Below are positions 2,019 to 15,746 of a DNA stretch of 35,603 nt, piece after piece. Positions within the stretch are counted from its first letter, which is position 1; each line of letters begins with the position of its first letter. This stretch comes from an archaeon (GTDB lineage: Archaea; Nanobdellota; Nanobdellia; Pacearchaeales; GW2011-AR1), in assembly GCA_043810775.1 (NCBI GenBank), contig JBDRNU010000017.1, positions 1 through 35,603 on the forward strand, written 5' to 3'. The position numbers were made by a program, and so were the translations under genes. The notes under the pieces were generated by a model. It made no database searches. It was not told the DNA's origin and saw only the letters and a program-made list of their open reading frames with translations.

Positions 2019-2966
2019 ATGCAAAAACTGCTTCCAAAAGCTAGAATTCATGATTTCATAAAAAACTTGATGAAGAATTATGAAGTTATAGCGCCAGTAA
2101 AAGAAAAAATAACTAAGTTTAAGGTAATTTCAAGTCCAGAAGAGATTTATCTTAAAGAAATCACCCAAGTTCCGATAAAACAGTTCTTTTTGCCGGAAAA
2201 TGAAACTTTAATAGATTATAAAAAAAGTAATCTTCATGCAAATAAAGACAAAACCCTCCAAAGAGTAATTTTTGGATTAAGAAAATGCGACACTAATGCT
2301 CTTCTAGTTCTAGATAAAATCATGATTGACCCACTATATATCCACAAGAGAAAAAAATCAATACTGATAGGTCTTTACTGCGAAAATCCTGATAAATACT
2401 GCTTTTGCAGCTCAATGGAGCTAGTAGATAGTTATGATTTGTTTTTTTACCCTGAAGGCAACAACTACCATATCTCCATTGGCTCAAAAGAAGGAGAAGC
2501 TCTTGTCAAAAATCTTCCTAAAGCAAAAAAAGAAGTTATAAAGCCATTTATAAATACAAAAGTTTTGAAAAATAAATCCATAGAAAAAGACTACAAAAAC
2601 AAAATCTGGCTAACTGATGTTGAAAAATGCCTAAGCTGTTCTGCGTGCACTGTCTATTGCCCCACATGCAACTGTTTTGATATATCTGATAAACTAAATA
2701 TCAATCTAAAAGATTCGTCAAGAGCAAGATTTCAGGCATCATGCCAGCTTAAAAGCTTTTCAAGAGTAGCTGGCGGAAAGGTATTTCGCGACTCACGGGC
2801 TTCTCGTTTCAAGCATTTTATATATCACAAAATTATTTACTATAAAAACAAATATAACAAATATATGTGTGTGGGTTGTGGTCGCTGTCTTCGTGTCTGC
2901 CCCACTAATATTGATTGGGTTAATACAATCAACTTGCTCAAAAACACAGGAAAAAACAAAAAATGA
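2019..2966 (+). CDS. hydB: Group 3b [NiFe] sulfhydrogenase beta subunit (4Fe-4S dicluster, AsrA-like)
   Basis: CLSCSACTVYCPTCNCF and CVGCGRCLRVCP ferredoxin motifs, plus YCFC; first gene of a beta-gamma-delta-alpha operon. Confidence 0.88.
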   Translation: MQKLLPKARIHDFIKNLMKNYEVIAPVKEKITKFKVISSPEEIYLKEITQVPIKQFFLPENETLIDYKKSNLHANKDKTLQRVIFGLRKCDTNALLVLDKIMIDPLYIHKRKKSILIGLYCENPDKYCFCSSMELVDSYDLFFYPEGNNYHISIGSKEGEALVKNLPKAKKEVIKPFINTKVLKNKSIEKDYKNKIWLTDVEKCLSCSACTVYCPTCNCFDISDKLNINLKDSSRARFQASCQLKSFSRVAGGKVFRDSRASRFKHFIYHKIIYYKNKYNKYMCVGCGRCLRVCPTNIDWVNTINLLKNTGKNKK

Positions 2967-3754
2967 CCTATCTGCCAATAAAATATAAAATAACTGGAAT
3001 AAAATGCCTGGCAGATGATATCAAATTATTCTATGTTAAGTCAAACCTAAATCCCATGCCCGGCCAGTTTATTGAAGTATCTCTGCCAGGAATAGGTGAA
3101 ATTCCCCTAGCATCTTGCACTTTTGACAAGAATAATATTAATCTGCTAGTTAGAAATGTGGGAATAGTAACCTCAAAGTTATTTAGTTTAAAAAATAAAG
3201 ACTCAATTTTTATCCGCGGGCCATATGGAAAGGGGTGGCCCCTTAACGAGTTGAAGGAAAAAGACCTGTTTATCATCGCAGGTGGAACGGGAATTGCTCC
3301 AGTAACCTCTCTGATAGAATATATTGAGAAAAACAAAAAAGATTTCAGAAAAATAAGCATTTATTTTGGATTTAGAAGCAAGGAATACATCCTCCTAAAA
3401 GAGAAGATAAATTCCTGGAAGAAAAAATTTAAGCTCATAATAAGTCTTGATGAAAAAGCAAAAGGATATGAAACAGGGCATCTCCCAAATATAATAGAAA
3501 AAACCAGGCTAAATGCAGAAAATTCTGTTGCTTTAATGTGTGGCCCGGAAATAATGATGTCCTCATCAACTAAAGCACTAAATAAAATAGGCTTGGCAAA
3601 TAATAAAATTTTCTGGAGCTTGGAAAGAAGAATGGAATGTGCAATAGGAAACTGTGGACGCTGCTTAATACAAGATGTGTATGTATGTAAAGATGGACCA
3701 GTATTCCGTTATGATAAAATTAAGCCTAAACTTGAAAATGAACAGTCAAATTAA
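2963..3754 (+). CDS. hydG: Sulfhydrogenase gamma subunit (FAD/NAD(P)-binding, 2Fe-2S)
   Basis: PGQF, RGPYGKGW, AGGTGIAP, MCGPEIMM and ERRMECAIGNCGRC...VCKDGPVF; ATGA overlap with hydB. Confidence 0.9.
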   Translation: MTYLPIKYKITGIKCLADDIKLFYVKSNLNPMPGQFIEVSLPGIGEIPLASCTFDKNNINLLVRNVGIVTSKLFSLKNKDSIFIRGPYGKGWPLNELKEKDLFIIAGGTGIAPVTSLIEYIEKNKKDFRKISIYFGFRSKEYILLKEKINSWKKKFKLIISLDEKAKGYETGHLPNIIEKTRLNAENSVALMCGPEIMMSSSTKALNKIGLANNKIFWSLERRMECAIGNCGRCLIQDVYVCKDGPVFRYDKIKPKLENEQSN

Positions 3755-3761
3755 GCCTAAA
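3717..3761 (+). repeat. 14-bp direct repeat AAATTAAGCCTAAA at the hydG/hydD junction
   Basis: Identical copies at 3717-3730 and 3748-3761. Confidence 0.7.
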
Positions 3762-4514
3762 ATAGGAATTTATGGGATTTCAGGATGTGCAGGATGTTTG
3801 CTAACTTTCCTGTATGAAGATTGCTTTAAAGAAATTTCCAATCTATTTGATATAAAAGCATTTCCAATGATAAAAGAAGATTCTTATCAGGGAAATTTTG
3901 ATTATGTTTTCATAGAAGGAACAGTCTGTTTTGATGAAGACATTCTTACAATAAACCAACTGAGAAAAAGAGCTGATAAAATAATAGCCCTTGGTTCTTG
4001 CTCCTGCTTTGGAGGAGTTCCGTCAATGAAAAACTTCCTCAACCAGGAAAAAACAATGAAACTAGTATACCCTAAATATAATCACCTAAAAGAAACTAAT
4101 CCTGAACCAATTGATATGCACATTAAAGTAGATTTTTACTTGCCGCAATGCCCTCCTAATAAAGAAGAAATTTTAAGATTCATAAAAAATATTGTGGCTG
4201 GCTCAGAATTTAAGCCTTATGCTGACCCTGTTTGCTTTGAATGTAGAAAACTAGGAAATGCTTGTTTGCTGGAGTCAAATGAAATTTGCCTTGGCCCAAT
4301 TACAAATGGTGGCTGTGATGCTCTCTGTCCTTCAAATAGTGTTGAATGCTATGGCTGTCGCGGGCCATGCAAAGATGCCAATATTAAGGCATTTTCCGAG
4401 TTGCTTAAGCAAAAAGGATATACTCTTCAAGCTCTTCGCGATAAAATGCAGACTTTTGCAGGCTTGCAATTCAAAGAAGAGGAGGAAAAAGTTTCAAAAT
4501 GGCTGGAGAAATAA
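3738..4514 (+). CDS. hydD: [NiFe] hydrogenase small (delta) subunit
   Basis: GCAGC, FIEG, ALGSCSCFGGVP, QCPP, VCFEC and CLGPIT..GC.A.CP...CYGCRG. Start placed at ATG 3738 (MNSQIKPKIG), not GTG 3675. Confidence 0.9.
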   Translation: MNSQIKPKIGIYGISGCAGCLLTFLYEDCFKEISNLFDIKAFPMIKEDSYQGNFDYVFIEGTVCFDEDILTINQLRKRADKIIALGSCSCFGGVPSMKNFLNQEKTMKLVYPKYNHLKETNPEPIDMHIKVDFYLPQCPPNKEEILRFIKNIVAGSEFKPYADPVCFECRKLGNACLLESNEICLGPITNGGCDALCPSNSVECYGCRGPCKDANIKAFSELLKQKGYTLQALRDKMQTFAGLQFKEEEEKVSKWLEK

Positions 4515-5755
4515 ATTTAAATCATATATGCAAAATAGAAGGTCATGCACACCTCACTTTAAAAATTGAAAAAAACAAAGTTTCAGTCTGCGAGCTCAAA
4601 GCAGCTGAAGGTGCGCGCTTTTTTGAAGCTCTGGTTCTGGGGAAAAAAATACAAGATATTCAAGAAATTGTCTCAAGAATCTGCGGAATTTGCAGCTGCG
4701 CTCACTCAGTATCCTCTATCCAGGCATTAGAAGAAGCCCTCAATATTCATCCAAGTGAACAGCAAAAGGCAATTCGTGAACTCTTAATGATTGGCGAGCG
4801 AATAAGAAGCAGTATAACTCATCTTTATTTCATGTCTCTTCCTGATTATTTAGGGTATAAATCAGCTTTATCAATGTCCCCTACTCACAAAGAAAAAATC
4901 AGCGACGCTCTTGCTTTAATCTCGCTTGGAAATAAAATTATTGAAGCTTTAGGTGGTAGGGAAATGCACCCTTTTCTTGAAATTAATAAAAAATTAAGAG
5001 AAATTGACAAAGATAAGCTAATAAAAGAAATTGAAAACTCAAAAAAATTATTTATTAAAACAATAAATTTATTTTTCAGTCTAAATCATCCTAAAATTGA
5101 AAGGAACACAGATTACCTTTCACTAAAAGACAAAACATATGCTATAATCTCAGGAAAAATAAAGTCAAATTCAGGGTTAATTGATGATAATAACTATAAG
5201 AAACATCTAAAAGAAAACATAAAAGAGTACTCCACATCAAAATTTGTCCTTAAAGATGAAAAGCCATTTGTTACAGGAGCCTCAGCTAGAATTAATAACA
5301 ACTCAGACCAGCTGGATATTGAAACAAAAAAATATTTAAGAAAAAATAAGCTCTCTCAAAATAATCCCTTTTTTAATAACCTGGCTCAGGCAATAGAGCT
5401 TCTTCATCTGGCCAACAGGGCAGTAAAACTAATTGAAAATCTTCAAATTGAAAAGCAAAAAATACAGCTGAAAATAAAACAAGGCGTAGGAGTTTCAGCT
5501 GTAGAAGCTCCGCGAGGAACCTTATTTCATGAGTATAAGATAAATAATCAGGGAGTAATTGATTACTGCAATATCATAACCCCTACAGCTCAAAACCTCA
5601 ATTCAATGGAGCTGGATATAAAACAGCTTGCCAACTCTTTGCTTCTGAAAAATACAAGCAAAGAAAAAATAATCCTGGAAATAGAAAAACTAATCCGAGC
5701 ATATGACCCTTGCTTTTCATGCTCAACCCACTTCCTTAAAGTGAAATGGTTATAA
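4499..5755 (+). CDS. hydA: Group 3b [NiFe] hydrogenase large (alpha) subunit
   Basis: KIEGH, ARFFE, L1 motif RICGICSCAH, EAPRGTLFH, and L2 motif DPCFSCSTH followed by a 7-aa cleavable tail (FLKVKWL). Confidence 0.93.
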   Translation: MAGEINLNHICKIEGHAHLTLKIEKNKVSVCELKAAEGARFFEALVLGKKIQDIQEIVSRICGICSCAHSVSSIQALEEALNIHPSEQQKAIRELLMIGERIRSSITHLYFMSLPDYLGYKSALSMSPTHKEKISDALALISLGNKIIEALGGREMHPFLEINKKLREIDKDKLIKEIENSKKLFIKTINLFFSLNHPKIERNTDYLSLKDKTYAIISGKIKSNSGLIDDNNYKKHLKENIKEYSTSKFVLKDEKPFVTGASARINNNSDQLDIETKKYLRKNKLSQNNPFFNNLAQAIELLHLANRAVKLIENLQIEKQKIQLKIKQGVGVSAVEAPRGTLFHEYKINNQGVIDYCNIITPTAQNLNSMELDIKQLANSLLLKNTSKEKIILEIEKLIRAYDPCFSCSTHFLKVKWL

Positions 5756-6100
5756 TTCAAGCTTCTCTTTAATATCTTTCTTTATCATCTCCTTATCCCC
5801 ATACTGGGGAATCCCAATAATTCTAACACCTAATCCAATTAACTGCAAAATAAAACTTGCGTCCAAATCATGGGCAGTTGATATCTTGCTCTCTTGCAAG
5901 TCATTTAAGCTTATCTCCCTGACTTCCTTCAAGTTTTCTACAACATCTAAAATAACTATTTTCTCTTGTGAGTTTAAATACTCAATTAGCTGGAAACTGT
6001 CTTTAATCATAATTATATTGTACTCAGCTAATTCACCAGCTACCTCTTTAGCTAAACTGTCTTCTTTAACAAACTCATTTCCTAAACATAAAATTTTCAT
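5750..6100 (-). CDS. Hydrogenase maturation endopeptidase (HycI/HybD family)
   Basis: From ATG 6100: MKILCLGNEFVKEDSLA...IVILDVV...STAHDL, matching the GNxxxxDD / D / STH pattern. Adjacent to hydA, which has a cleavable tail. Confidence 0.8.
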   Translation of the reverse strand: MKILCLGNEFVKEDSLAKEVAGELAEYNIIMIKDSFQLIEYLNSQEKIVILDVVENLKEVREISLNDLQESKISTAHDLDASFILQLIGLGVRIIGIPQYGDKEMIKKDIKEKLEL

Positions 6101-6150
6101 AAATAAACATGCCAAGAAAAGCTTAAATATATTATTAAGTTCTAGTTTAA

Positions 6151-7041
6151 ATGAAAAAAGAGGCACTAGGCACACTGCTGATTTTACTTACTGCAATAAG
6201 CTCAGGTATAGCTATAGTAGTCAACAAGTTTTTTGTTGCTTCAATAGACCCGCTAATACTTACAGCTTCACGAGCACTGATAATAGGAATTATATTTCTC
6301 GCTATTTCCTTGTTTATTTCCAAATCATCAAATAAAAAGTTCAACAAAGTTTCATGGAAATATTTAGTCTTAATTGGTATAATAGGAGGAAGTGTAGCTT
6401 TCTGGATGTTTTTTGAAGGTCTGAAATTAACTACAGCAGGAAGAGCAGCATTTATTCATAAAACCCTTCCTATTTATGCCTTTATTCTGGCTTTTATTTT
6501 TCTTAAGGAAAAAATAACAAAAAATCAGATTCTTGCTCTTGGAATAATGCTTCTTGGCCTAATATTGCTGGAATCTGGGAATGTACTAACAGAAATTAGA
6601 ACTGGAGATTTCCTAGTTCTTCTAGCTACTTGTTTATGGGCTATTGAAAATACTATTGCTAAAAAAGCAATGCTGAAAAAAGAGTCAAATTTTGTTGTTG
6701 TATTTTCAAGAATGTTTTTCGGCTCTATAATTCTTTTTGCAATTATATTTATTCTGGGAAAGTCTGGCGAGCTCCTCACCCTAAATTCAAAACAAGTTGC
6801 CTATATTTTAGTTTCAGGATTATTTTTATTATTTTATGTGCTAACTTATTACTGGGGCTTAAAATATATTAACCTATCAAAAGCTTCAACCATACTCCTA
6901 ATCTCTCCAGTTATCTCTCTGATTTTAGGTTATATCTGGCTAAGCGAGCAAGTCCTAGCCTTACAGCTAGCTGGTTCCCTCCTTATTCTAATTGGAGCTT
7001 ACTTTACTTCAAAAACAAAAAGTGAATCAAGAGAGATTTAA
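6151..7041 (+). CDS. DMT/EamA family transporter
   Basis: About 10 TM helices in two repeats; motifs AFIFLKEKI, GDFLVLLA and LGYIWLSE. Confidence 0.88.
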   Translation: MKKEALGTLLILLTAISSGIAIVVNKFFVASIDPLILTASRALIIGIIFLAISLFISKSSNKKFNKVSWKYLVLIGIIGGSVAFWMFFEGLKLTTAGRAAFIHKTLPIYAFILAFIFLKEKITKNQILALGIMLLGLILLESGNVLTEIRTGDFLVLLATCLWAIENTIAKKAMLKKESNFVVVFSRMFFGSIILFAIIFILGKSGELLTLNSKQVAYILVSGLFLLFYVLTYYWGLKYINLSKASTILLISPVISLILGYIWLSEQVLALQLAGSLLILIGAYFTSKTKSESREI

Positions 7042-7511
7042 TCTAGCTTTTCAACAGCATAGGAAAAATGAATTCTTACCTTGTCGCCAACCTTTACTTC
7101 TTTTAAAATATCAGAAAAAACAACTCTCTCCGAATCCCCATATTTTACTACAAGCAAATTCTCTTTTTTCTTTATAATTTCAGCAACATGAACCCTGCAC
7201 AAATCTTTCAGGCTTTCAGGCATAACTTTATAGGTCCCTTCCCCATCTCCAATAAATTTATTATGCTCTTCCAGCCAGTATTTCTTAATTAAATCTAAAT
7301 CCCAGTAATATTTATTCATTTCTCTAGCTAGAATTTTAATTCGCCTAAATGCAGAAGAAAAAAGCTTTTCAAGTTCCTCTCTTGTTGGAATAATGCCCTG
7401 TTTAAACTGTCTTTCAAGTTCATTATAATCTTCCTCACTTAACTGTCCAAGCTCAACTTTTAAATAAGCACACGGAAAAGCATACATAAAAAAATATTGT
7501 TCAGGATTCAT
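7038..7511 (-). CDS. Hypothetical protein with C-terminal HypC-like OB-fold (DUF6390-like)
   Basis: N-terminal YAFPC; the C-terminal LCRVHVAEI...VKVGDKVRIHFSYAVEKL aligns by eye with HypC; lies 1 bp downstream of hypC. Confidence 0.6.
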   Translation of the reverse strand: MNPEQYFFMYAFPCAYLKVELGQLSEEDYNELERQFKQGIIPTREELEKLFSSAFRRIKILAREMNKYYWDLDLIKKYWLEEHNKFIGDGEGTYKVMPESLKDLCRVHVAEIIKKKENLLVVKYGDSERVVFSDILKEVKVGDKVRIHFSYAVEKLD

Positions 7512-7512
7512 T

Positions 7513-7725
7513 TTAGTTGTAGATTTTTAATTCATCAAGCATCTTATAAGCTTCCAAAGCATCTTTTTCAGGAACTTTCTTAATGACAAACCCCACACTT
7601 ACAATAACATACTCACCTTCCTTAACTGAAATCAAGCTTTTAGCTGTTCTTTTCTCAGACTTATAATCAACCTCTATATTTTCTCCATCAACCTTAACAA
7701 CTTTTCCAGGAATTGCAAAACACAT
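7513..7725 (-). CDS. hypC: Hydrogenase maturation chaperone HypC
   Basis: N-terminal MCFAIPGKV signature and GEYVIVSVGF. Confidence 0.88.
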   Translation of the reverse strand: MCFAIPGKVVKVDGENIEVDYKSEKRTAKSLISVKEGEYVIVSVGFVIKKVPEKDALEAYKMLDELKIYN

Positions 7726-7726
7726 A

Positions 7727-8044
7727 CTAGTATTTAACTTTCAAAACTTTTATATCTTTTCCTTCTGTTACTTTGGGCAGATTTCCGCATTTAGGGCAAG
7801 AAAATAATACTAAGTCATGCATTTTCCCATTAATTTTAGCTCTCCCACTATAACTGCACTTGCATTTCACCCTAGATATCTTCTCCCTAATATTAACTGC
7901 CCACCCTGTCATCTTTTCAATAATCTCTTTTAATTCTTCTCCAGAAATACCGGCAAGCTCCCCAACTTCCAATTCCATCTCCTTGACTTTGCCTTTGTCT
8001 TTAACTTGTTCAATTATATTTTTAGCAAAAACAATTTCATGCAT
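7727..8044 (-). CDS. hypA: Hydrogenase nickel metallochaperone HypA
   Basis: N-terminal MHE Ni site, VGELAGI, CKC and CPKCG Zn ligands, and a terminal GKDIKV. Confidence 0.85.
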   Translation of the reverse strand: MHEIVFAKNIIEQVKDKGKVKEMELEVGELAGISGEELKEIIEKMTGWAVNIREKISRVKCKCSYSGRAKINGKMHDLVLFSCPKCGNLPKVTEGKDIKVLKVKY

Positions 8045-8048
8045 CTTT

Positions 8049-8678
8049 TTATAAAGAAATCAGATTTTTTAAAACCTTTCCAGGATTTTTCGCTTTTGTT
8101 ATGGCAGAAGATAAAGCAATCCCACTTGCTCCAAGTTTCATTGCAACTCTCAAATCTTCATTGCTGTGAATCCCAGCCCCTACTAAAAACTTAACTTTCA
8201 AATGCTTGGCAGTTTGCAAAATTAAATCTGGCTTTGCTTTGGAAACTGAATTTCTGCCTCCAACCAGTTCAGGAGGTTCTATAACTATATAGCTGGGATT
8301 TAGCTTTTGTATTCTTCTAGCTTCCCTTAAAGTAGAAGCAAAAACTAAAGTCTTAAGCCCAGTTTCCTTGCACCTCTTTACAGTTCTCTTTAATATTCTG
8401 AATTTTAGCTTATGCTCAGAGTGATTCAAAAACGCTCCCACAGCCCCGTCAACCTTAATTGCTTCAGCTAGAATATAACCAGTATGCCTTCCTGGAGAAA
8501 AATAATCTACATGCTGAGCATATATTTTTAGTTTAGTCTTTCTTGTAATTTCATAAATGTCACTTGCCTGAACACCTACAATTATATTTCTATCCACCTT
8601 CTCAATAGCTTTTGCTAGGTTAATTGCTTTCATCCCCTGCTTATACGTTTTTAAGTTTACTACTATAATAGGTTTCAT
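8049..8678 (-). CDS. tpiA: Triosephosphate isomerase (archaeal short type)
   Basis: VNLKTY, AQHVD, NHSEH, IEPPELVG and GAGI. Confidence 0.93.
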   Translation of the reverse strand: MKPIIVVNLKTYKQGMKAINLAKAIEKVDRNIIVGVQASDIYEITRKTKLKIYAQHVDYFSPGRHTGYILAEAIKVDGAVGAFLNHSEHKLKFRILKRTVKRCKETGLKTLVFASTLREARRIQKLNPSYIVIEPPELVGGRNSVSKAKPDLILQTAKHLKVKFLVGAGIHSNEDLRVAMKLGASGIALSSAITKAKNPGKVLKNLISL

Positions 8679-8680
8679 TG

Positions 8681-8986
8681 TTATATTTGAGAGTAATGAT
8701 TATAGCTTGGCAGCAAAAACTGAATAAAAGATATTACTATATAAACTATAAGAAAAGGCAGAACTATATTCTGAAGATACTGCAAAACTACATCTCCTAA
8801 ACTAGCACAGCAAACACAAGATTTTACAATTAAGTGGCTTGCATAATTATTAGTGCAATCAGGTTCACATACCTTGCACTGAATCTTTGAGTCAAGGAGA
8901 ATTTGAATTAATATCCACACTACTGTTAAAACCAAACTTACCAGCAGATTAATAAAATTAAGTCTTAAAAATCCTTTTTCTCTCAT
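8681..8986 (-). CDS. Hypothetical two-TM membrane protein with Cys-rich loop
   Basis: Two hydrophobic helices flank CKVCEPDC...CVCC; ATGA overlap with the aldolase gene. Confidence 0.65.
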   Translation of the reverse strand: MREKGFLRLNFINLLVSLVLTVVWILIQILLDSKIQCKVCEPDCTNNYASHLIVKSCVCCASLGDVVLQYLQNIVLPFLIVYIVISFIQFLLPSYNHYSQI

Positions 8987-9741
8987 TTTTTGAAAATAAT
9001 TCTCCTGATTTTATCTGCAACCTTGACTGGCTGTTTATCTTGCCATATGTTTCTTCCAACAGCCATTCCAATCGCACCACTTTCATTTATATCTTTAACC
9101 TGATTTAAAAAATATTTCTTATCTTTTTTAATTCCCCCAGCAATTACAACTTTTGCTTTCCCAGCTGACTTGACTGCCCACTTTAAGTCTTCTTTATTTC
9201 CATTATACTGAATCTTGATTATATCAGCTCCAATTTCTAATCCAGTTCTTGATGCATATGCCATTAATTCTTTGCTTGATTTATTCCTGATACTTTTGCC
9301 TCTTGGATAAATCCATGCAATTACTGGCAGCCCCTTATTATGCGCCTCTTTTTCAATTTTAGAAAATTCCTCCATCATTTCCTCTTCGTGTTTAGAGCCA
9401 ATATAAATTGTAAATCCCACTGCAGTGGCTCCTAGCTTAATTGCTTCTTCAACTGTTGCAATCTGTGCAGAAATAGGATCTCCTTTCACTAAGTTTGTCT
9501 TTCCATTAAGCTTTAAGATTAAAGGCACTTTTGATTTTTTTATTTCTTTGCTGTATTTTTCTGCAATGCCTTTCTGGAAAATTACAGCACTAAATTTTCC
9601 TTTCTTAGCTATATCTAAAATATATTTTGGATCAACACTCTTGTCATTAAAGTCGCTGGGTCCGTGCTCTAGCCCCTGGTCATAAGCTAGAAATAAGGCT
9701 TTTCCTTTTGTTGTAATTTTATTAAGGTTTACTTTTTTCAT
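8983..9741 (-). CDS. Class I fructose-bisphosphate aldolase (DhnA/FbaB family)
   Basis: LAYDQGLEHGP, WIYPRG, GADIIK (Schiff-base Lys), AGG and GRNIWQ. Confidence 0.9.
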   Translation of the reverse strand: MKKVNLNKITTKGKALFLAYDQGLEHGPSDFNDKSVDPKYILDIAKKGKFSAVIFQKGIAEKYSKEIKKSKVPLILKLNGKTNLVKGDPISAQIATVEEAIKLGATAVGFTIYIGSKHEEEMMEEFSKIEKEAHNKGLPVIAWIYPRGKSIRNKSSKELMAYASRTGLEIGADIIKIQYNGNKEDLKWAVKSAGKAKVVIAGGIKKDKKYFLNQVKDINESGAIGMAVGRNIWQDKQPVKVADKIRRIIFKK

Positions 9742-9923
9742 TTTAAATAAGTTTTAATAACAATATATGAATCAATCAAAAAACCCCCTATTCCAACTAA
9801 TAATAAAACCCAACTAATAAAATTTGTCTCTTTAAGCAAAGATAAAATAGCATAGATTATTACATATAAAAAAGCCAAAACTCCAAGTTTATCCATTTTA
9901 ACTGCAAATTTTTCAATTTTCAT
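9738..9923 (-). CDS. Small two-TM hypothetical membrane protein
   Basis: 61 aa, hydrophobic, with ATGA overlaps to both neighbours. Confidence 0.6.
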   Translation of the reverse strand: MKIEKFAVKMDKLGVLAFLYVIIYAILSLLKETNFISWVLLLVGIGGFLIDSYIVIKTYLK

Positions 9924-10492
9924 TTTTTTCTCTCCTTCATTAGTTTAGGAAAAATCCCCCCTGTAATTTTTATATAATCTTTATATTTTCTGCCAAAATT
10001 ATTAACTAATGATTTTTCCTCTTTGGGAATTTTGTAAATGTAAAAAGCAATCAATATTAATAAAGGGATTCCTGTAAAAAACCAGTTAGCTGTTAAAAAA
10101 ACAAAACCAATAAGCATTACAAAACTAGCACTGTAAATTGGATGCCTAATATACTTATATGGGCCCGTTCTGATTAATTTTTTAGATTTGTAAAATTTCT
10201 TTTCAATTACAGGGCTCCAATTCTCACCTAAATTTATATGAGCCCAGAAAATTAAAAATGATCCTATAAATATTAAAGAAAGTCCTATAAAAATTCTCAA
10301 ATAATAATTTAAGCTAAAATTAGCAAAATCTAAATAATTACTAAAATAAAGAATGAATAAGATTAGCAAAACTATATTTTTTGCCATTAATCTTGGTGTA
10401 AATTCATAATGTGAAGTAAATCTTGACCTTGCAATCAGAAATATTAAAACTAATGATAATACTATAAATTTCATTGCTAATTCAGGGTTCAT
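9920..10492 (-). CDS. Isoprenylcysteine carboxyl methyltransferase (ICMT/Ste14)-family membrane protein
   Basis: LGENWS, LIRTGPYKYIRHPIYS and EEKSL...FG..Y..Y. Confidence 0.88.
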   Translation of the reverse strand: MNPELAMKFIVLSLVLIFLIARSRFTSHYEFTPRLMAKNIVLLILFILYFSNYLDFANFSLNYYLRIFIGLSLIFIGSFLIFWAHINLGENWSPVIEKKFYKSKKLIRTGPYKYIRHPIYSASFVMLIGFVFLTANWFFTGIPLLILIAFYIYKIPKEEKSLVNNFGRKYKDYIKITGGIFPKLMKERKK

Positions 10493-11400
10493 CTCAGTCT
10501 CATCCTCAACAAGTTATTTTTAGCTCCAAAATATCTTATAACTGATTCACTTTCCATTAAGCCAAGCTTTAAACCCTCTTCAATACCCATGCCTGCAACC
10601 AATGATGCAACAAATCCACTGGCAAAAGCATCTCCTGCACCAGTTCTCTCAACAACCTTAACTTTATGAGGCATTAAATAATATCTTTTATTTCCATCAT
10701 AAGCTTCTATTCGCTTGTTTTTGTCAGTAATTACAACTATTCCTTTATCAGCTGTTAATCTTCTTAGCCCCAACAGCAAATCACCTTTTCCAGCAAGTAA
10801 TCTCGCTTCTTCTTTATTCATAATAATCACATCACATAATCTCACTAATCTTCCAAGTTTTTTCTTGCCATATTTCCTGATAATATACTCGCTTGGATTA
10901 TACACAATTTTAGTTCCTCTTTTCTTTAGAAATTCTGCAAGTTTTATCTGGCTTTGAAAACTCTCCCCTAATAAAGAAGTTAAATATAACCACTTAGTTT
11001 TAATTTTTCTAAATTTAATATCTTCTTGTTTTATTTTATTATTAATTCCCTTGTAAGTCAAAATAGTCCTGTCTCCACCCTTACTGTCTAATACAACTGA
11101 ATACCCGCTCATCTCCCTTACAGCTATTTTTCCCAAAAATCTCACTTTCTCCCTAAAAAACAAATCAAGAATTCCTCGCCCAGCTTCATCATCTCCTATC
11201 TTGCATATACACCCAGTTTTCAGTCCAAGTCTTGAAAAAGCAACAGCAGTATTAGTCCCACCCCCCCCAATATCCCACCTTAGGTTTTTAAGTAAAATTT
11301 TGCTCCCAACCTTGTAACTAATCATGCCTTTTTTCTCAGCAACATCAGTATCTACAAATAAGTCAACTACTGCGCTTCCAAAAGTTACTATGTCAAACAT
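10489..11400 (-). CDS. PfkB/ribokinase-family carbohydrate kinase
   Basis: Start placed at ATG 11400 (MFDIVTFGSAVVD); motifs GGGGTNTAVAFSRLG, NKEEA and ERTGAGDAFASG. Confidence 0.9.
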   Translation of the reverse strand: MFDIVTFGSAVVDLFVDTDVAEKKGMISYKVGSKILLKNLRWDIGGGGTNTAVAFSRLGLKTGCICKIGDDEAGRGILDLFFREKVRFLGKIAVREMSGYSVVLDSKGGDRTILTYKGINNKIKQEDIKFRKIKTKWLYLTSLLGESFQSQIKLAEFLKKRGTKIVYNPSEYIIRKYGKKKLGRLVRLCDVIIMNKEEARLLAGKGDLLLGLRRLTADKGIVVITDKNKRIEAYDGNKRYYLMPHKVKVVERTGAGDAFASGFVASLVAGMGIEEGLKLGLMESESVIRYFGAKNNLLRMRLR

Positions 11401-11530
11401 TTTATCCTCTTTTTCTAAGTTACTTAAGAAAAGGTAATTAATAAAACTTATGATTATAATTAACTCTCCAATAATTAAGAATGCTATCCACAACACAAAT
11501 TTTTATAAATACTTCTTGCTTAATCTAATC

Positions 11531-12124
11531 ATGAAAAAATTGGCAGTGATGATTTTTGCTATTTTAGTGAGTTTAAACTTTATTAGCGCATTTGGTTTTT
11601 CTCCACCCATACCAAACACATTTACTTTAAATCCGGGAAATTCAGCCAATTTTACTATGAGAGTTTATCCAGATGTAGATAGCAATTGTAGTTTTTATAT
11701 AACAGAAAATTCCCCTTTAGAGCTTGCCCTTCCATCTAGTTTTGTAGTATATTCTAATCAATCTTTTACAATTATTTATGGCTCTGTTAATGTACCTATT
11801 GGTTTAGCTCCTGGAAATTACACAGAAGTATTTTGTTTTGACAGCAAGCCTTTATTGGGAAATGTGGGGATTGGTGTCTGTGGATTAAAAATAACTGTTA
11901 TTGTTCCAGAACCTCCTATTCAGGATGCTGATGGGGATGGGATTCCAGATGAAGAAGATTTTTGCCCAGATACATCAGGAATAGCATTAAGCAAAGGCTG
12001 TTCTTGCGCACAAATTTTAGAGCTAAAACCAGGAAAAGACACAAAAGAAATTAACACTGGTTGTACTGAAAAAACAATTATAGCTTTTGATAATGGAATA
12101 AGTTGGGCTAAAAAATTATTTTAA
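11531..12124 (+). CDS. Secreted protein with Ig-like region and thrombospondin type-3 (Ca-binding) repeat
   Basis: Signal peptide MKKLAVMIFAILVSLNFISA from ATG 11531; beta-rich ...PGNY... region; DADGDGIPDEEDFCPDT; several N-x-S/T sequons. Confidence 0.7.
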   Translation: MKKLAVMIFAILVSLNFISAFGFSPPIPNTFTLNPGNSANFTMRVYPDVDSNCSFYITENSPLELALPSSFVVYSNQSFTIIYGSVNVPIGLAPGNYTEVFCFDSKPLLGNVGIGVCGLKITVIVPEPPIQDADGDGIPDEEDFCPDTSGIALSKGCSCAQILELKPGKDTKEINTGCTEKTIIAFDNGISWAKKLF

Positions 12125-13264
12125 AGCTTCAATTCCTACAAGCTTCTCTCCAGCAATGTACCTCAATAAAGCTCCTCCACTCAAGCTAATATATCCAAAC
12201 TTCTTAAAACTAATTCCAGACTTCCTGATAGTGTCAGCTAAATGCCCTCCCCCAATAACACTAAATCCTTTATTCTTGGAAATTGCCTTTAATATCTTCA
12301 TTGTTCCTCTAGAGAACCTCTTGTCACTCGAAAGTCCTGCTGGCCCTTTCATATAAATTGACTTCGCTTTTTTAATCTCATCAACATAATCTTCAATAGT
12401 TTCCTTGCCTATATCAAAAATCTCATAAATACTTGGAAATTCATCAATTTTTAACTCTCTTCTTTTTCCATGAACACTTACTGCAAAATCTCTAGGATAC
12501 TTGACATTTTTAAGTTTCTTCTTCAGCTTGCCAATAAGCTCCTTATTAATATACTTGTTTTCATACAAGTACTTATTTTGAGCGCCGAACCTCTTACCCT
12601 GTGCAATCAAGCAAGCCTGCCCAAATAACCCGCAAGCCAGTACTTTATTTCCTTTTAAAAGTTTAATGTCTTCTTCTGGCTTTGCCCCGCCTAGAATGTA
12701 CAAACTATTTTTCATCTTAATTTTATTCAAGGCTCTTAGCTCATATTCTAATAATCTTCCTCCGCAGCTTGGAAGATATTTTGGAAATAAGACCATAGAA
12801 GCATGCTTTCTGTGGCTGTTTGAAAAAGCATCATTTACATAAATATCAAACAAAGGGGCTATCTTTTTAATTAATTTATTTTCCCTGCCTTTTTCTGGCT
12901 TGTATTCATCTTTTTCCATACGGATATTTTCTAAAAGTAAAGCCTCTCCTTCCTCCAAACCCCTAATAGCCATTAAAGCCTTCATCCCAGTTATACTATC
13001 TACAAAATCAACTTTTGTAATTTTGCTAAGTAGTTTAGCATGCTGATCTAAACCAATAAAATCCTCTCTGCCAGGCCTGCCCTGATGGGCAATTATCACC
13101 ACCTTTGCTTTTTTCTTTTTCAACTCACTAATAGTATTTGAAGCAGCAATTATCCTCTCTGACATCACAACTTTCCCATTTACAACATTAGAATTCAAGT
13201 CTGCTCTAACTAAAACTCTCATACTATTAAAATCAAAATCATCTAAAGTTTTCAGCTTCCTCAT
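12116..13264 (-). CDS. pgk: Phosphoglycerate kinase
   Basis: VRADLNS, AHQGRPG, LLENIR, YVNDAFSNSHR, LGGAK, DIG, GGGH and SLSGGA. Confidence 0.95.
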   Translation of the reverse strand: MRKLKTLDDFDFNSMRVLVRADLNSNVVNGKVVMSERIIAASNTISELKKKKAKVVIIAHQGRPGREDFIGLDQHAKLLSKITKVDFVDSITGMKALMAIRGLEEGEALLLENIRMEKDEYKPEKGRENKLIKKIAPLFDIYVNDAFSNSHRKHASMVLFPKYLPSCGGRLLEYELRALNKIKMKNSLYILGGAKPEEDIKLLKGNKVLACGLFGQACLIAQGKRFGAQNKYLYENKYINKELIGKLKKKLKNVKYPRDFAVSVHGKRRELKIDEFPSIYEIFDIGKETIEDYVDEIKKAKSIYMKGPAGLSSDKRFSRGTMKILKAISKNKGFSVIGGGHLADTIRKSGISFKKFGYISLSGGALLRYIAGEKLVGIEALK

Positions 13265-13296
13265 TTTTACCTTTAAATTATAAGAAAAATAGTGTT

Positions 13297-13860
13297 TTAA
13301 ATCTTATGTAAAAATAGATTATAAATAAAGGCAATTAAACAAGAAATTAAATAAAAAACAATAAAAAACAATAGCAAATTTATAATTAAAGCTAAATAAC
13401 TTACAGGCTCATAATCCTTAATTTCGCCCAAAGAAAAAAGAGAGTTTATACCTTCTGCATCTAAATAAAGAGTCATCAGACAGTTATAACCTTCTTGAGA
13501 AATATAAAAACCACAAAAACCACTGCTTAGGAGGGAACACGGAACAGGATATAAAGGATCAACACGACTGATAATTTGATTGGAGATTAAAACAAAGGCA
13601 ATTTTAGTGTCACCAATCTCTTTCCTTTTTTCTTCAATTATATTAGAAAATTCTAATGTTTTTTGCACAAGCAACTCTGTATTATTCTGCTCAGTCAACA
13701 AGGTTCTTTGCTCATTAAAATCAGTCATCATACAGCTAAGTTCTCCAACAAAAGGAATCACCTTCATACTTGTAACAAAAACAATAATTAATAAAATAGT
13801 AATCATAATTGGTAATATTAATTTTCCAGCACTTGGCTTAATAAAATCTTTCCAATTCAT
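13297..13860 (-). CDS. Hypothetical two-TM membrane protein with Cys-containing extracytoplasmic loop
   Basis: MNWKDFIKP..K N-terminus, N- and C-terminal TM helices, and a YLISCLI tail. Confidence 0.7.
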   Translation of the reverse strand: MNWKDFIKPSAGKLILPIMITILLIIVFVTSMKVIPFVGELSCMMTDFNEQRTLLTEQNNTELLVQKTLEFSNIIEEKRKEIGDTKIAFVLISNQIISRVDPLYPVPCSLLSSGFCGFYISQEGYNCLMTLYLDAEGINSLFSLGEIKDYEPVSYLALIINLLLFFIVFYLISCLIAFIYNLFLHKI

Positions 13861-13861
13861 T

Positions 13862-14698
13862 TCATCTTTTCACTAATTTAATTTTAAACTTACTATCCCC
13901 AGGTTCATGCATACCTACCCTATATTCTTTTGCAGTTTTTGGAATTTTATGCATGCCCTTATTTAGATAATAATTATTATAATATCTCTTCTTTCCAATC
14001 ATCATCAAAACTTCCTGCCCTGATTCTTCTAATAAAGCCCCCCCGCCAAGCATGAAATTCTGCAAATCTCTAATCAGCAGTAAAACCAACACTAAAACAG
14101 TAGAAAGCAAAACGCTTATAATCTGTGAATATAAAACAGAAGTCTTTATATAAAAAATACTGAACAAAATTATGCCACTTAAAGCAAGAAGAATCACCCA
14201 CTGGCCATAACTCATTTTTTCATTATAAAGTGCAGCTGCCTGATTTCTTGCTTTCTCGATTTCAGTTAATTGCTCAAAAAGATATTCATTAGAAGAACTA
14301 TTTTTAACCTTTTTAATTTTTATAACTTCATCCCACATCTTCAAAAAATATTCAGAAGTTTCCTTATAACAATTACCTATAATAAAATCAAAAGCCACAA
14401 TATAAAAATTATCTATGCATTCTGCAATTTTTTTTGCAAAATTATCCCCATAAACTTGGGAGGTCTTATAAAAAGATAAAAACAAAGCATCCTCATCTGA
14501 AATTAACTCCCTTATTTTATCATACCTGCTGTTTAATCTTGAAATAAAAAATCCAGCTAAAATTGCGAACAAAAATGTGCTTATAGTTAAAATTAATGTA
14601 ACTTCATCATTAGGACCATATCCTGGGATAAAAATCACAATTGCTATAAAAAGAATAAATGCAATAATTGCTCCAGGCATAGAATAGATATATCTCAT
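13862..14698 (-). CDS. Four-TM membrane protein, DUF4239/bestrophin-like topology
   Basis: Two TM helices, a helical soluble region, then two TM helices ending IRDLQN; FAILAGF...E pattern. Confidence 0.55.
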   Translation of the reverse strand: MRYIYSMPGAIIAFILFIAIVIFIPGYGPNDEVTLILTISTFLFAILAGFFISRLNSRYDKIRELISDEDALFLSFYKTSQVYGDNFAKKIAECIDNFYIVAFDFIIGNCYKETSEYFLKMWDEVIKIKKVKNSSSNEYLFEQLTEIEKARNQAAALYNEKMSYGQWVILLALSGIILFSIFYIKTSVLYSQIISVLLSTVLVLVLLLIRDLQNFMLGGGALLEESGQEVLMMIGKKRYYNNYYLNKGMHKIPKTAKEYRVGMHEPGDSKFKIKLVKR

Positions 14699-15690
14699 TT
14701 TAACTTCTTCGCAAGCTCAACAAATTTTACACTATAACCATACTCATTATCATACCAAGCTAATACCTTAACAGAATTCCCTATAACTTGTGTATCTACT
14801 GCACTAAAAATTGAAATATGCTCATTTCTGATTATATCACTGGATACTAACTCCTCCTCACTATACTCTAAAACTCCTTTAAGCTTCTTCTTTGCAGCTT
14901 CTCTAAAAACAGCATTTACCTGTTCTCTTGTTACCTTGGTATTTAGTTCTGCAGTAAAATCAACAATGCTTCCACTGACAATAGGAACTCTTAAAGCCAA
15001 CCCATTCATCTTCCCTTCCATTTCAGGAATAACTTGACTAACCGCAGTTGTGGCTCCAGAAGTAGTGGGAACTATATTCACAGCAGCTGCTCTGCCTCTT
15101 CTTAACTTCTTGTCAGGCCTGTCAACAATTCCCTGAGTAGAAGTATAAGCATGAATAGTATTCATAAATCCCTTTCTAACCCCAAAGCTATCATTCAATA
15201 TTTTTACAACAGGCGCAAGGCAGTTTGTAGTGCAAGAAGCCATAGAAATTATCTGGTGCTCTTTTTTCAGCTTGTCATCATTAACTCCTAAAACAATAGT
15301 AATATCTGCCTCGCTTCCCTTGCATGGTGCAGAAACTAAAACTTTTTTTGCTCCAGACTTTAAGTGCTTGCTCGCCCCTATTCTGTCAGTAAAAAATCCG
15401 GTGCATTCCAAAACAACATCCACTCCCAAATCATACCAAGGCAGGTCAATAGGGTCCTTTTCAGCATAGACTTTTATTTTCTTCCCATTAACCTTCAAGA
15501 AACCCTCTCCATACTCAACATCTCTGTCATAATTTCCATAAACAGAATCATGCTTAATTAAATAAGCTAAAGTCTTAGTGTCAGTCAAGTCATTTATAGC
15601 CACAATATTCAACCCTTTTTCTAGTCCGATTTTCAAAACTAGCCTCCCTATCCTTCCTAAACCATTGATTGCAATTTTTTTTCTGAACAT
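14695..15690 (-). CDS. gap: Glyceraldehyde-3-phosphate dehydrogenase, type I (bacterial-type, probably NAD-dependent)
   Basis: INGLGRIGR, AINDL, ECTGFF, ASCTTNCLAP and WYDNEYGY. Start is ATG 15690 or TTG 15696. Confidence 0.95.
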   Translation of the reverse strand: MFRKKIAINGLGRIGRLVLKIGLEKGLNIVAINDLTDTKTLAYLIKHDSVYGNYDRDVEYGEGFLKVNGKKIKVYAEKDPIDLPWYDLGVDVVLECTGFFTDRIGASKHLKSGAKKVLVSAPCKGSEADITIVLGVNDDKLKKEHQIISMASCTTNCLAPVVKILNDSFGVRKGFMNTIHAYTSTQGIVDRPDKKLRRGRAAAVNIVPTTSGATTAVSQVIPEMEGKMNGLALRVPIVSGSIVDFTAELNTKVTREQVNAVFREAAKKKLKGVLEYSEEELVSSDIIRNEHISIFSAVDTQVIGNSVKVLAWYDNEYGYSVKFVELAKKLK

Positions 15691-15746
15691 TTTCAATCTC
15701 TTTTTCCTTTTAAATCAAGTAAAAGTTAATATTTAAATTTCACCTT

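Follow-up and report, generated by a model that had tools for sequence, protein, structure and literature searches.

The closest described systems are the Hyp proteins, which mature [NiFe]-hydrogenases. HypF is a carbamoyltransferase, HypE is a dehydratase, and HypD is an Fe-S scaffold. In the canonical HypCD scaffold, HypC Cys2, HypC His51, and HypD Cys41 act together. Passages of PMC12134894 state that no [NiFe]-hydrogenase obtains its NiFe(CN)2CO cofactor without the six Hyp proteins A to F, that the HypC His (E. coli His51) is conserved and needed for activity, and that some systems have additional carriers, HoxV and HupK among them. In a search of the full-text literature, with supplementary tables outside its scope, nothing was found on [NiFe] maturation without HypD, HypE, and HypF (HypDEF). 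The passages of PMC11216029 and PMC10936187 retrieved for DPANN, NiFe, and maturation dealt with [FeFe] maturases or merely listed hydrogenases, and the word "hydrogenase" does not occur in PMC8204110. Similarly, the literature search found no paper on DUF6390 (Pfam PF19927), an uncharacterised family.

The window, that is, the whole stretch of 35,603 nucleotides that was analysed, carries a set of [NiFe]-hydrogenase genes together with genes for their maturation. One of the encoded proteins is called X here. The features are listed below in the order of their positions.

2019 to 2966, forward strand: hydrogenase beta subunit (4Fe-4S dicluster; PF17179, 102.5 bits)
2963 to 3754, forward strand: hydrogenase gamma subunit (FAD/NAD-binding, Fe-S; PF00175, PF10418)
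3675 to 4514, forward strand: hydrogenase small (delta) subunit, start codon uncertain (PF01058, 73.5 bits)
4499 to 5755, forward strand: [NiFe]-hydrogenase large subunit, group-3b-like (PF00374, 113.5 bits)
5750 to 6175, reverse strand: HycI-type hydrogenase maturation protease (TIGR00072, 25 bits; PF01750, 18.7 bits; both below cut-off)
6151 to 7041, forward strand: EamA/DMT-family permease (PF00892, 170 bits)
7038 to 7511, reverse strand: X, 157 aa, short form of DUF6390 (open reading frame; PF01455, 25.9 bits; DUF6390, 12.9 bits)
7513 to 7725, reverse strand: HypC, 70 aa (PF01455, 58.3 bits, cut-off 28.5; TIGR00074, 51 bits, cut-off 48)
7727 to 8044, reverse strand: HypA nickel metallochaperone, 105 aa (PF01155, 39.3 bits, cut-off 28.9)

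In the translation, the large subunit contains RICGICSCAH and DPCFSCSTH, and seven residues form a tail after the latter motif. HypA shows the MHE start and the CxC...CxxC pattern. For the protease, whose listed reading frame begins at GTG 6175, Met 6100 is the probable start. The start codon of X lies one base past the HypC stop. The EamA permease gene is convergent to X, and their 3' ends share 4 bases. The sequencing runs listed as containing part of the stretch are of groundwater DNA only, with no RNA runs among them.

This arrangement recurs. In 20 X loci, hypA-hypC-X was grouped with the protease and four hydrogenase genes; a protease homologue was found in 16/20, and the convergent 3' overlap of EamA with X in 17/20. 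Of 30 X loci, 22 have HypC directly upstream of X in the same orientation, and in 26 HypC lies within 1.5 kb. A [NiFe] large-subunit match was present in 39/39 X genomes, and the homologues of X are therefore tied to hydrogenase loci, as the preliminary description of this DNA had expected. The recurring gene clusters in the neighbourhood were HypA, 2-oxoacid:ferredoxin oxidoreductase subunits, MFS, and other lineage-specific genes.

The C-terminal part of X has the fold of HypC. The AlphaFold2 model of X reached a pLDDT of 95.8 and a pTM of 0.89. Residues 105-157 (7038-7199) matched PF01455 by hmmscan with an E of 1.1e-5 and 25.9 bits (cut-off 28.5). The genome scan gave X 28.7 bits against the same cut-off of 28.5, and TIGR00074 gave no match. 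By Foldseek, this OB domain superposed on T. kodakarensis HypC (3vyt_A) with an rmsd of 0.9 A over 51 columns and 33% identity (E 4.8e-4; TM 0.92 by target). Over the solved HypCs, the rmsd was 0.9-1.1 A with 33-35% identity. VIA placed residues 105-157 on residues 2-54 of 2z1c_A with a Z of 7.2 and an rmsd of 1.8 A over 53 residues, and 2ot2 also gave a Z of 7.2 against the X model. In this superposition, Cys105 of X falls on HypC Cys2. His148 of X lies within GDKVRIHFSYAVEK, which corresponds to GDYVLVHAGFAIEK of His-bearing HypCs. C14, H83, C105, and H148 were invariant in 32/32 X sequences (close homologues), where the H148 motif was GDKVxIHxxYAVEK, with His in all 32.

The OB fold is thus common to the C-terminal 53 residues of X and the HypC/HybG/HupF family (PF01455, TIGR00074; PDB 2z1c, 3vyr-3vyu), but the two differ at the N-terminus. 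HypC proteins begin with Met-Cys, whereas the Cys of X is residue 105, after ...SLKDL, with a 104-residue helical domain ahead of the OB fold. Being internal, this Cys has no free N-terminal amine, unlike HypC Cys2. X also occurs on top of a real HypC, which is itself without the His.

Residues 1-104 of X form seven helices and include YAFPC (Cys14). Modelled separately (pLDDT 90), this domain had no PDB match by Foldseek (best E 7.8). The best Z among 48,161 chains compared by VIA-align was 4.1, with none at 5 or above, the profile of the domain found nothing under E 0.1 among PDB sequences, and a search of the ESM Atlas by features returned no usable match. These empty searches do not prove a new fold. 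The domain did resemble two DUF6390 clusters in the ESM Atlas (TM 0.66-0.67), with nothing else above 0.5.

The relation to DUF6390 was further examined by profile comparison. X aligned with DUF6390 in hhalign at 97.9% and an E of 4e-13 over 153 columns, which covered both the helical and the HypC-like domains. The Pfam DUF6390 model gave 12.9 bits (below the cut-off of 25; E 0.074) over the N-terminal 76 residues only. The Cys and His of the OB domain were invariant in 29/29 DUF6390 proteins. The invariant positions of the DUF6390 alignment are C20, H121, H122, C148, and H206, the last two of which are matched by C105 and H148 of X in hhalign. C14 and H83 of the X N-domain and the Cys/His of the DUF6390 N-domain fall in different hhalign columns, and the HH pair of DUF6390 sits in an insertion absent from X. 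DUF6390 proteins are about 80 residues longer than X, owing to this middle insertion, which bears the invariant motif PHHxFxV, and to a C-terminal helix. The two forms have common neighbours (HypC, the EamA permease, and a group-3b-like hydrogenase), and HypD, HypE, and HypF are nearly absent from the genomes of both. Their gene orders differ: hypC-X with a convergent EamA gene for X, and hypC-EamA-DUF6390 on one strand for DUF6390. By these alignments, X appears to be a HypC-derived minimal form of the DUF6390 family. At E<=1e-10, the X family comprised 368 clusters among 1.84 billion representatives, and together with the invariant residues of the 32 close homologues this goes beyond chance. 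The preliminary description had read X as a helical domain with YAFPC ahead of a HypC-like segment of about 53 residues that keeps the Cys and the His, and had called the protein DUF6390-like; the fold and profile comparisons bear out each of these points.

The HypC encoded beside X is altered. Its 70-aa product exceeds both HypC family cut-offs and starts with MCFAIPGK, and Cys2 is therefore kept. The conserved His is missing. The product reads EYVIVSVGFVI where the usual HypC pattern is V-H-x-G-F-A, and Ser43 (codon AGT, 7599-7597) occupies the column of the conserved His (E. coli His51). Within the phylum, the His was found in 0/26 X-linked HypCs (S in 7, N in 5, Q in 13, and G in 1) and in 0/10 DUF6390-linked HypCs, compared with 15/15 HypD-linked HypCs. 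The His was thus missing from 36/36 HypCs adjoining X or DUF6390. In one genome with both HypD and DUF6390 (G247), the HypC linked to DUF6390 is also without the His. The HypC part of HypC-HydE fusions is likewise His-less, and on these sequences the loss of the His appears to follow the absence of HypD rather than the presence of X as such. In other phyla, 14 of 69 DUF6390-linked HypCs keep the His, 13 of them in genomes without HypD; the loss is therefore not obligatory. The preliminary description had noted the retained Cys2 and the Ser in place of His, and had held that its pairing of a His-less HypC with X would fail if such HypCs were common whatever their partner. The translation agrees with the first, and the counts of 0/36 beside X or DUF6390 versus 15/15 beside HypD show that His-less HypCs are not common whatever their partner.

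The distribution of X was compared with that of HypD, HypE, and HypF in samples of 401, 50, and 61 genomes, in which related genomes are not independent. The 401 genomes of the phylum were each >90% complete, and a [NiFe] large-subunit match was found in 92 of them. X was present in full length in 39 genomes and as a divergent copy in one more (G155), 40 in all; DUF6390 was present in 25, and HypD in 16. None of the 39 X genomes had HypD, and one of the 25 DUF6390 genomes did (G247). Four taxonomic families (f18, f28, f57, and f97) contain both kit types, never in one genome. HypE scored above cut-off in 0/21 X genomes, 0/14 DUF6390 genomes, and 15/15 HypD genomes. True HypF was absent from the five genomes G000, G073, G186, G009, and G220, of which G009 and G220 are single-contig genomes. 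The presence of hypD, hypE, and hypF in X genomes, which the preliminary description had left to be checked, thus came to 0/39, 0/21, and 0 in 3 tested. GTPase-type HypB was found in 0/20 X genomes, and the genome of the window gave a 20-bit match only. HypB was also considered as the factor that X or DUF6390 replaces. This was rejected, as HypB is absent from 11/16 HypD genomes and adjoins DUF6390 in G015; X/DUF6390 and HypB are therefore not alternatives.

Outside the phylum, 49 of 50 DUF6390 genomes were without HypD/E/F. HypD was found in 1/50 (with 3 stops), HypE above cut-off in 0/50, and HypF in 1/50. In one DUF6390 genome (G406), hypD and hypE are broken by stops and frame changes, which are possibly sequencing errors. 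Among Actinomycetia with DUF6390, 2/9 have HypD (G466 and G497), and the two genes are adjacent in one of them. From these cases and G247, the DUF6390 family may be an accessory that merely survives the loss of HypDEF. The family is also present in Pseudarthrobacter oxydans CC185, a soil bacterium in culture.

Several lines of evidence connect X directly to HypC. At least four distinct natural HypC-X fusion proteins were found, and the HypC part is His-less in all of them. A 282-aa reading frame in locus L032 was rejected as a fusion, since an upstream cytidylyltransferase-like gene is read in frame there. The modelling of X with HypC, which the preliminary description had proposed, gave a complex that passed its controls, with an ipSAE of 0.78 versus 0.08 for the best control; a value of 0.78 was reached by 58/80 solved complexes and 2/110 mismatched pairs. 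The runs agreed in at least 93% of contacts with a partner pLDDT of at least 84, in a prediction that was built on custom alignments and may lean on solved HypC structures. The predicted interface joins X residues 14, 104-105, and 149-150 to HypC residues 1-6 and 43-44. On the basis of the genome associations, the fusions, and the predicted complex, X is very probably a [NiFe]-hydrogenase maturation factor partnered by HypC. The same three kinds of evidence are consistent with the earlier proposal that HypC and X divide the HypC function between them, complement it, or serve as a scaffold. None of the outcomes named there as refuting the idea was observed.

Both HypD and X fill the gene slot after hypC, and X is distributed as an alternative to HypD. 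Like HypD, X is predicted to bind the HypC N-terminus, with a conserved Cys near HypC Cys2. X had no sequence match to HypD (PF01924, TIGR00075), and the Foldseek and VIA fold searches with its N-domain showed nothing clear. Unlike HypD, X has two invariant Cys only, with no four-Cys [4Fe-4S] motif and no Rossmann-type domain. HypE and HypF, the feeders of HypD, are also missing where X would replace HypD. That X is a functional stand-in for the HypD scaffold is given slightly less than even odds.

The best explanation as a whole, to which we assign a probability of roughly 55%, is that X and HypC form the metal scaffold of a HypDEF-independent maturation route. X would bind the adjacent His-less HypC 1:1. 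The HypC N-terminus, with Cys2, would be laid on Cys14 and Cys105 of X, near His148, and a shared Cys/His metal site would be formed. This site would take the role that HypC Cys2, HypC His51, and HypD Cys41 have in HypCD. HypC would then hand over the iron unit to the large subunit in its apo form, with nickel inserted by HypA and the C-terminal tail cut by the HycI-type protease. The module of hypA-hypC-X with the convergent EamA gene would serve the group-3b-like hydrogenase in genomes without HypD, HypE, and HypF. The phylum would thus have at least three alternative maturation kits, this module among them. We infer metal binding by HypC and X, iron as the metal, and the scaffold role from the evidence above, and likewise a CO/CN route, for which no enzyme was identified. 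The reading frames of 100 loci were clustered and ten recurring unlabelled clusters were searched with Pfam, and no candidate for a ligand-making enzyme was found. A 157-aa X cannot replace HypF, HypE, and HypD together. No known enzyme fold or catalytic motif was seen in X, and the proposed route therefore offers no source of CN and CO.

Another way to dispense with HypDEF exists in the same phylum. HydG and a HypC-HydE fusion are found beside [NiFe] large-subunit genes in genomes without HypD and without X/DUF6390. HydG and HydE are radical-SAM maturases of [FeFe]-hydrogenase, whereas a radical-SAM motif is absent from X. A route to CO and CN is known for the HydG kit but not for the X kit. 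HydG was found in 0/21 X genomes, and neither HydE nor HydG in the genome of the window.

X could instead act on the large subunit as a second, specialised chaperone or as an intermediate carrier, like the HypC paralogues HupF/HoxL or the intermediate scaffold HoxV/HupK, and not be the site of iron-unit assembly. Its HypC-like domain would then hold or protect the apo large subunit. This is unlikely, although the OB domain of X is a true HypC fold with Cys and His, the joint presence of DUF6390 and HypD in G247, G466, and G497 suits an add-on role, and HoxV and HupK are known as extra carriers (in passages of PMC12134894). Such a carrier leaves unexplained both the loss of the His in all 36 partner HypCs of the phylum and the absence of HypD and HypE from nearly all X/DUF6390 genomes. 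Furthermore, both the fusions and the contacts predicted at the HypC N-terminus suggest that X binds HypC directly rather than the large subunit.

The permease suggests a different role. The EamA gene was found in 77 of 100 X/DUF6390 loci, in two different gene arrangements. It could import nickel, another metal, or a small ligand, which X/DUF6390 would buffer or deliver in place of HypB/SlyD-type delivery. The invariant Cys and His of X/DUF6390 suit soft metals, and the lack of GTPase-type HypB in the 20 X genomes fits as well. However, HypB is also missing from most HypD genomes and adjoins DUF6390 in one genome. The domain of X derives from the iron chaperone HypC, and it is with the partner HypC that it co-varies. 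The Nitrososphaerales loci pair HypC with DUF6390 but contain no permease gene, and the absence of HypDEF is not explained. We therefore regard this role as improbable.

The idea that X regulates or senses hydrogenase assembly, for instance by reporting metal status, with no direct part in building the cofactor, has still less to recommend it. The helical N-domain without a known fold would leave room for such a function, but no DNA-binding or signalling domain was found in X by domain and fold searches, and the tight translational coupling and the HypC fusions better suit a stoichiometric partner; we consider it very improbable. Finally, it is scarcely credible that HypDEF only seem absent because genomes are incomplete or divergent genes were overlooked, with X a dispensable HypC-like paralogue: the genome of the window is 80% complete, most searched genomes are metagenome-assembled, and the broken genes of G406 may be sequencing errors, but the sampled genomes are >90% complete, the single-contig G009 and G220 and the 1.96-Mb chromosome G430 are also without HypD and HypE, identical searches recovered HypD and HypE in 15/15 control genomes and HypD in high-GC actinobacteria, and 0/39, 1/25, and 1/50 are impossible from random gaps.

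The preferred reading, X and HypC as a scaffold, can be extended to other lineages, more tentatively and with the odds somewhat against it. In the extended form, X/DUF6390 with a His-less HypC, usually with EamA, would be a complete route for building and delivering the iron part without HypD/E/F, in which either the ligand source is new or the iron ligands are different. It would be one of three interchangeable kits (HypCDEF; HypC with X/DUF6390; HydG with the HypC-HydE fusion) across DPANN archaea, Thermoplasmata, Nitrososphaerales, Patescibacteria, Chloroflexota, and some Actinomycetia.

The occurrence of X/DUF6390 with an altered HypC in hydrogenase genomes without HypDEF points to an undescribed way of making a [NiFe] enzyme. 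In hundreds of genomes from many phyla, closed ones among them, the [NiFe] hydrogenase seems intact and is accompanied by HypA, HypC, and the protease. HypD, HypE, and HypF are missing from these genomes, and a conserved HypC-derived protein is found in their place. Since the family is present in the cultured P. oxydans CC185, the question is testable at the bench. If these enzymes are active, CO and CN would be supplied in a new way, or a different iron site would be used. Either outcome could yield a much smaller gene set for hydrogenase production in other hosts, and would alter the reading of hydrogenase potential from genome data, because pipelines may score such organisms as being without maturation genes.

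The genome (about 1 Mb in 26 contigs, 80% complete) carries X as the last gene of a hypA-hypC-X operon beside a [NiFe] hydrogenase. Close homologues of the window proteins bear names such as Nanoarchaeota and Pacearchaeota. The locus is composed of the following features.

2019-5755, + strand, four-gene group-3b-like [NiFe] hydrogenase (Pfam matches)
5750-6175, - strand, HycI-type protease (profile matches)
6151-7041, + strand, EamA permease (Pfam)
7038-7511, - strand, X, last gene of the operon
7513-7725, - strand, hypC, middle gene of the operon
7727-8044, - strand, hypA, in operon with hypC and X

The hydrogenase genes encode a 4Fe-4S beta subunit, an FAD/NAD gamma subunit, a small subunit and a large subunit, the last with the motifs RICGICSCAH and DPCFSCSTH in translation. 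One base separates the HypC stop from the X start, and the 3' ends of EamA and X overlap by 4 bases. The 3' ends of the protease and large-subunit genes overlap by 6 bases. The protease ORF as listed has a GTG start and runs into the EamA start region; a start at Met 6100 (MKILCLGNEF...) is more likely. Sugar-phosphate metabolism genes lie directly beyond hypA (8049-16625). Among them, a triosephosphate isomerase was confirmed by Pfam, and a putative phosphoglycerate kinase (12116-13264), glyceraldehyde-3-phosphate dehydrogenase (14695-15696) and sugar isomerase (15747-16625) were recognized by eye.

The 157-residue X was modeled by AlphaFold2 from 32 homologues (pLDDT 95.8, pTM 0.89). Seven helices (residues 3-105) are followed by a five-stranded barrel (107-156), which superposes on Thermococcus kodakarensis HypC (rmsd 0.9-1.1 A, 33-35% identity). 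X residues 105-157 map onto HypC chain residues 2-54; thus Cys105 is the Cys2 equivalent and His148 the equivalent of the conserved His. The HypC-like C-terminal segment with Cys and His, claimed in the preliminary description, is borne out by the model. C14, H83, C105 and H148 are invariant across the 32 homologues (35-57% identical). The helical domain was also modeled alone (pLDDT 90), and no solved relative of it was found by Foldseek (best E 7.8) or by VIA (best Z 4.1, 48,161 chains).

The earlier guess that X is DUF6390-like was also correct. Pfam gave just 12.9 bits, below its threshold, and profile-profile comparison gave 97.9% probability (E 4e-13, 153 columns). The only ESM Atlas matches to X residues 1-104 above TM 0.5 were two DUF6390 clusters (TM 0.66-0.67). 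X is a short DUF6390. DUF6390 proteins have about 240 residues, with an insertion of about 60 residues carrying an invariant His-His and a C-terminal helix that X lacks. The OB-domain Cys and His are aligned between the two, whereas the N-domain Cys and His fall in different columns. X is related to HypC but lacks the N-terminal Cys and consists of more than one small domain; it shows no likeness to HypD. A search of 1.84 billion representatives with the X profile gave 368 clusters at E<=1e-10. Two adjacent DUF6390-type matches, which may be tandem paralogues or split genes, were seen in some loci (L112 6001-7300; L155 5881-6900; L169 4598-6700), and in one locus from Altiarchaeota an X-like ORF precedes EamA-DUF6390.

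X is, with a probability of about 85%, a maturation factor partnered with HypC. In 22 of 30 loci the gene immediately upstream of X, on the same strand, is hypC, and in 26 of 30 hypC is found within 1.5 kb. Natural HypC-X fusions occur as at least four distinct proteins (P0154, P0161, P0253 and the truncated P0162), besides P0007. The predicted X-HypC complex, built with custom alignments, reached an ipSAE of 0.78 versus 0.08 for the best of three controls; on a rough calibration, 58 of 80 solved complexes reached this mark, as did 2 of 110 mismatched pairs. Contact agreement between runs was at least 93%, with a partner pLDDT of at least 84. The prediction supports binding, with an interface formed on the X side by residues 14, 104-105 and 149-150 and on the HypC side by residues 1-6 and 43-44, which would bring the invariant cysteines of X to the Cys2 end of HypC.

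The distribution of maturation genes was measured by searching the same 401 Nanobdellota genomes (400 at least 90% complete) for large subunit, X, DUF6390 and HypD. Large-subunit matches were found in 92 genomes (87 above cut-off), full-length X in 39, including the window genome and two flagged unpublished (G243, G396), DUF6390 in 25 and HypD in 16; one genome, G155, has a divergent X copy. X and HypD never occurred together, and DUF6390 and HypD did so once (G247). A large-subunit match is present in every one of the 39 X genomes and 16 HypD genomes, so the presumed tie of X homologues to hydrogenases holds. X, DUF6390 or HypD is present in 79 of the 92. The others comprise six genomes with a single weak large-subunit match (E 2e-6 to 4e-4) and seven with a strong one (G106, G251, G298, G313, G320, the unpublished G333, and G372). 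Both kit types (X/DUF6390 and HypD) occur, in separate genomes, within each of the families f18, f28, f57 and f97, so a single ancient divergence does not by itself account for the split. HypE was above cut-off in 0/21 X, 0/14 DUF6390 and 15/15 HypD genomes. HypF matches in five X/DUF6390 genomes, including the window genome and two single-contig genomes, were housekeeping-domain fragments alone (at most 51 bits). HypB was rejected as a discriminator: the GTPase type was found in 5/16 HypD, 0/20 X and 1/14 DUF6390 genomes. The sole carrier among these 34 X/DUF6390 genomes is G015, where HypB (208 bits) directly adjoins DUF6390 (contig C91, 2147-4005).

Beyond the phylum, a pattern scan with one genome per species found DUF6390 in at least 595 genomes. 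They include archaea (Woesearchaeota, Thermoplasmata, Nitrososphaerales, Altiarchaeota, Micrarchaeia) and bacteria (Patescibacteria, Dehalococcoidia, Limnocylindria, Methylomirabilota, Bacillota and Pseudarthrobacter oxydans CC185). Among 50 genomes chosen from the best 80 loci, which matched a DPANN query and are therefore biased to group-3b-type loci, HypD and HypF were each found in one, G406, and HypE above cut-off in none. In this Thermoplasmata genome (contig C1, 338882-343565), an intact hypF is followed by hypD with three in-frame TGA stops and hypE split across two frames. The breaks reflect either decay of the canonical set or assembly errors, and the set may be intact but spoiled by sequencing errors. 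Of 61 Actinomycetia, nine carry DUF6390 and two of these nine HypD, with adjacent genes in one. HypD was also found in two high-GC Actinomycetia without DUF6390, indicating that the search works at high GC.

The window HypC belongs clearly to its family (58.3 bits), and its reported lack of His was confirmed: Cys2 is present, and Ser43 (AGT, 7599-7597) occupies the His position. Within the phylum, this loss tracks the partner. His was kept in 0/26 X-linked HypCs (Gln 13, Ser 7, Asn 5, Gly 1; one from the unpublished G243), 0/10 DUF6390-linked HypCs and 15/15 HypD-linked HypCs. G247 carries both systems: its DUF6390-adjacent HypC has Ser, and the one adjoining HypD is truncated by the contig end. 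The HypC-like domain of X and DUF6390 always keeps its own His, and the HypC part of every HypC-X fusion is His-less. Outside the phylum, 55 of 69 DUF6390-adjacent HypCs from the best 80 loci lack His (Gln 36, Phe 12, Ser 3, others 4). The remaining 14 keep it, 13 of them in genomes without HypD; His loss is therefore frequent, not obligatory. Seven of the 26 X-linked HypCs (loci L011, L015, L021, L022, L025, L027, L028) end in Cys (e.g. ...GKAC, ...HGC), reminiscent of the C-terminal Cys on which HypE carries its cyanide precursor; the window HypC ends in ...KIYN.

A third gene set was found in large-subunit genomes without X, DUF6390 or HypD. True HydG (538-569 bits) is present in four of six tested (G106, G298, G320, G372); it was found in 0/21 X genomes and, with an internal stop, in 1/14 DUF6390 genomes. 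G106, from the window genome's taxonomic family, has small subunit, large subunit, protease, HydG and a HypC-HydE fusion in order.

L103 (G106, contig C8), 7823-13450, HydG / HypC-HydE locus (HydG 562 bits)
L047 (G298, contig C2), 1501-2805, the same HypC-HydE fusion as in G106

The HydE parts score 267-278 bits, and Gln replaces the His in both fused HypCs. A His-less HypC is thus the mark of a HypC working without HypD, whatever the replacement. At the HydG loci, [FeFe]-type maturases may act on a [NiFe]-type subunit; alternatively, the loci may belong to the hybrid hydrogenases described in PMC11216029.

In the most likely mechanism, X would pair with HypC as a heterodimer, and iron would sit in a Cys/His site that the two share. 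HypC would later pass the iron to the large subunit, and HypA and the protease would act afterwards as usual. That X stands in for HypD is tentative, at slightly below even odds, since no CO- or CN-making enzyme was found by Pfam among the recurring ORFs of 100 X/DUF6390 loci, the main gap. It is also possible that the DUF6390 family began as an accessory, since DUF6390 and HypD coexist in a few genomes. A 2025 review (PMC12134894) states that the six Hyp proteins are necessary. Searches of article full texts turned up no publication about DUF6390 or about HypDEF-free [NiFe] maturation.

The permease is present in 77 of 100 X/DUF6390 loci. Among 20 X loci taken with 8-kb flanks, 17 share the window's arrangement, in which EamA runs towards X and the two 3' ends overlap, and one more has EamA 1.1 kb away; DUF6390 loci have hypC-EamA-DUF6390 on a single strand. 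Its retention in two differing arrangements argues for a function shared with X/DUF6390.

The cultured actinobacterium P. oxydans CC185 (G414) carries DUF6390, a HypC with His, a HycI-type protease and the large subunit in one cluster, and no HypD, HypE or HypF was found within 20 kb or in the whole genome. The cluster (loci L186, L188, L190; contig 5, about 200-232 kb) also encodes DUF6084 and a NifU-Rieske protein, and its [NiFe] large subunit has 616 residues. This strain is a possible bench model.
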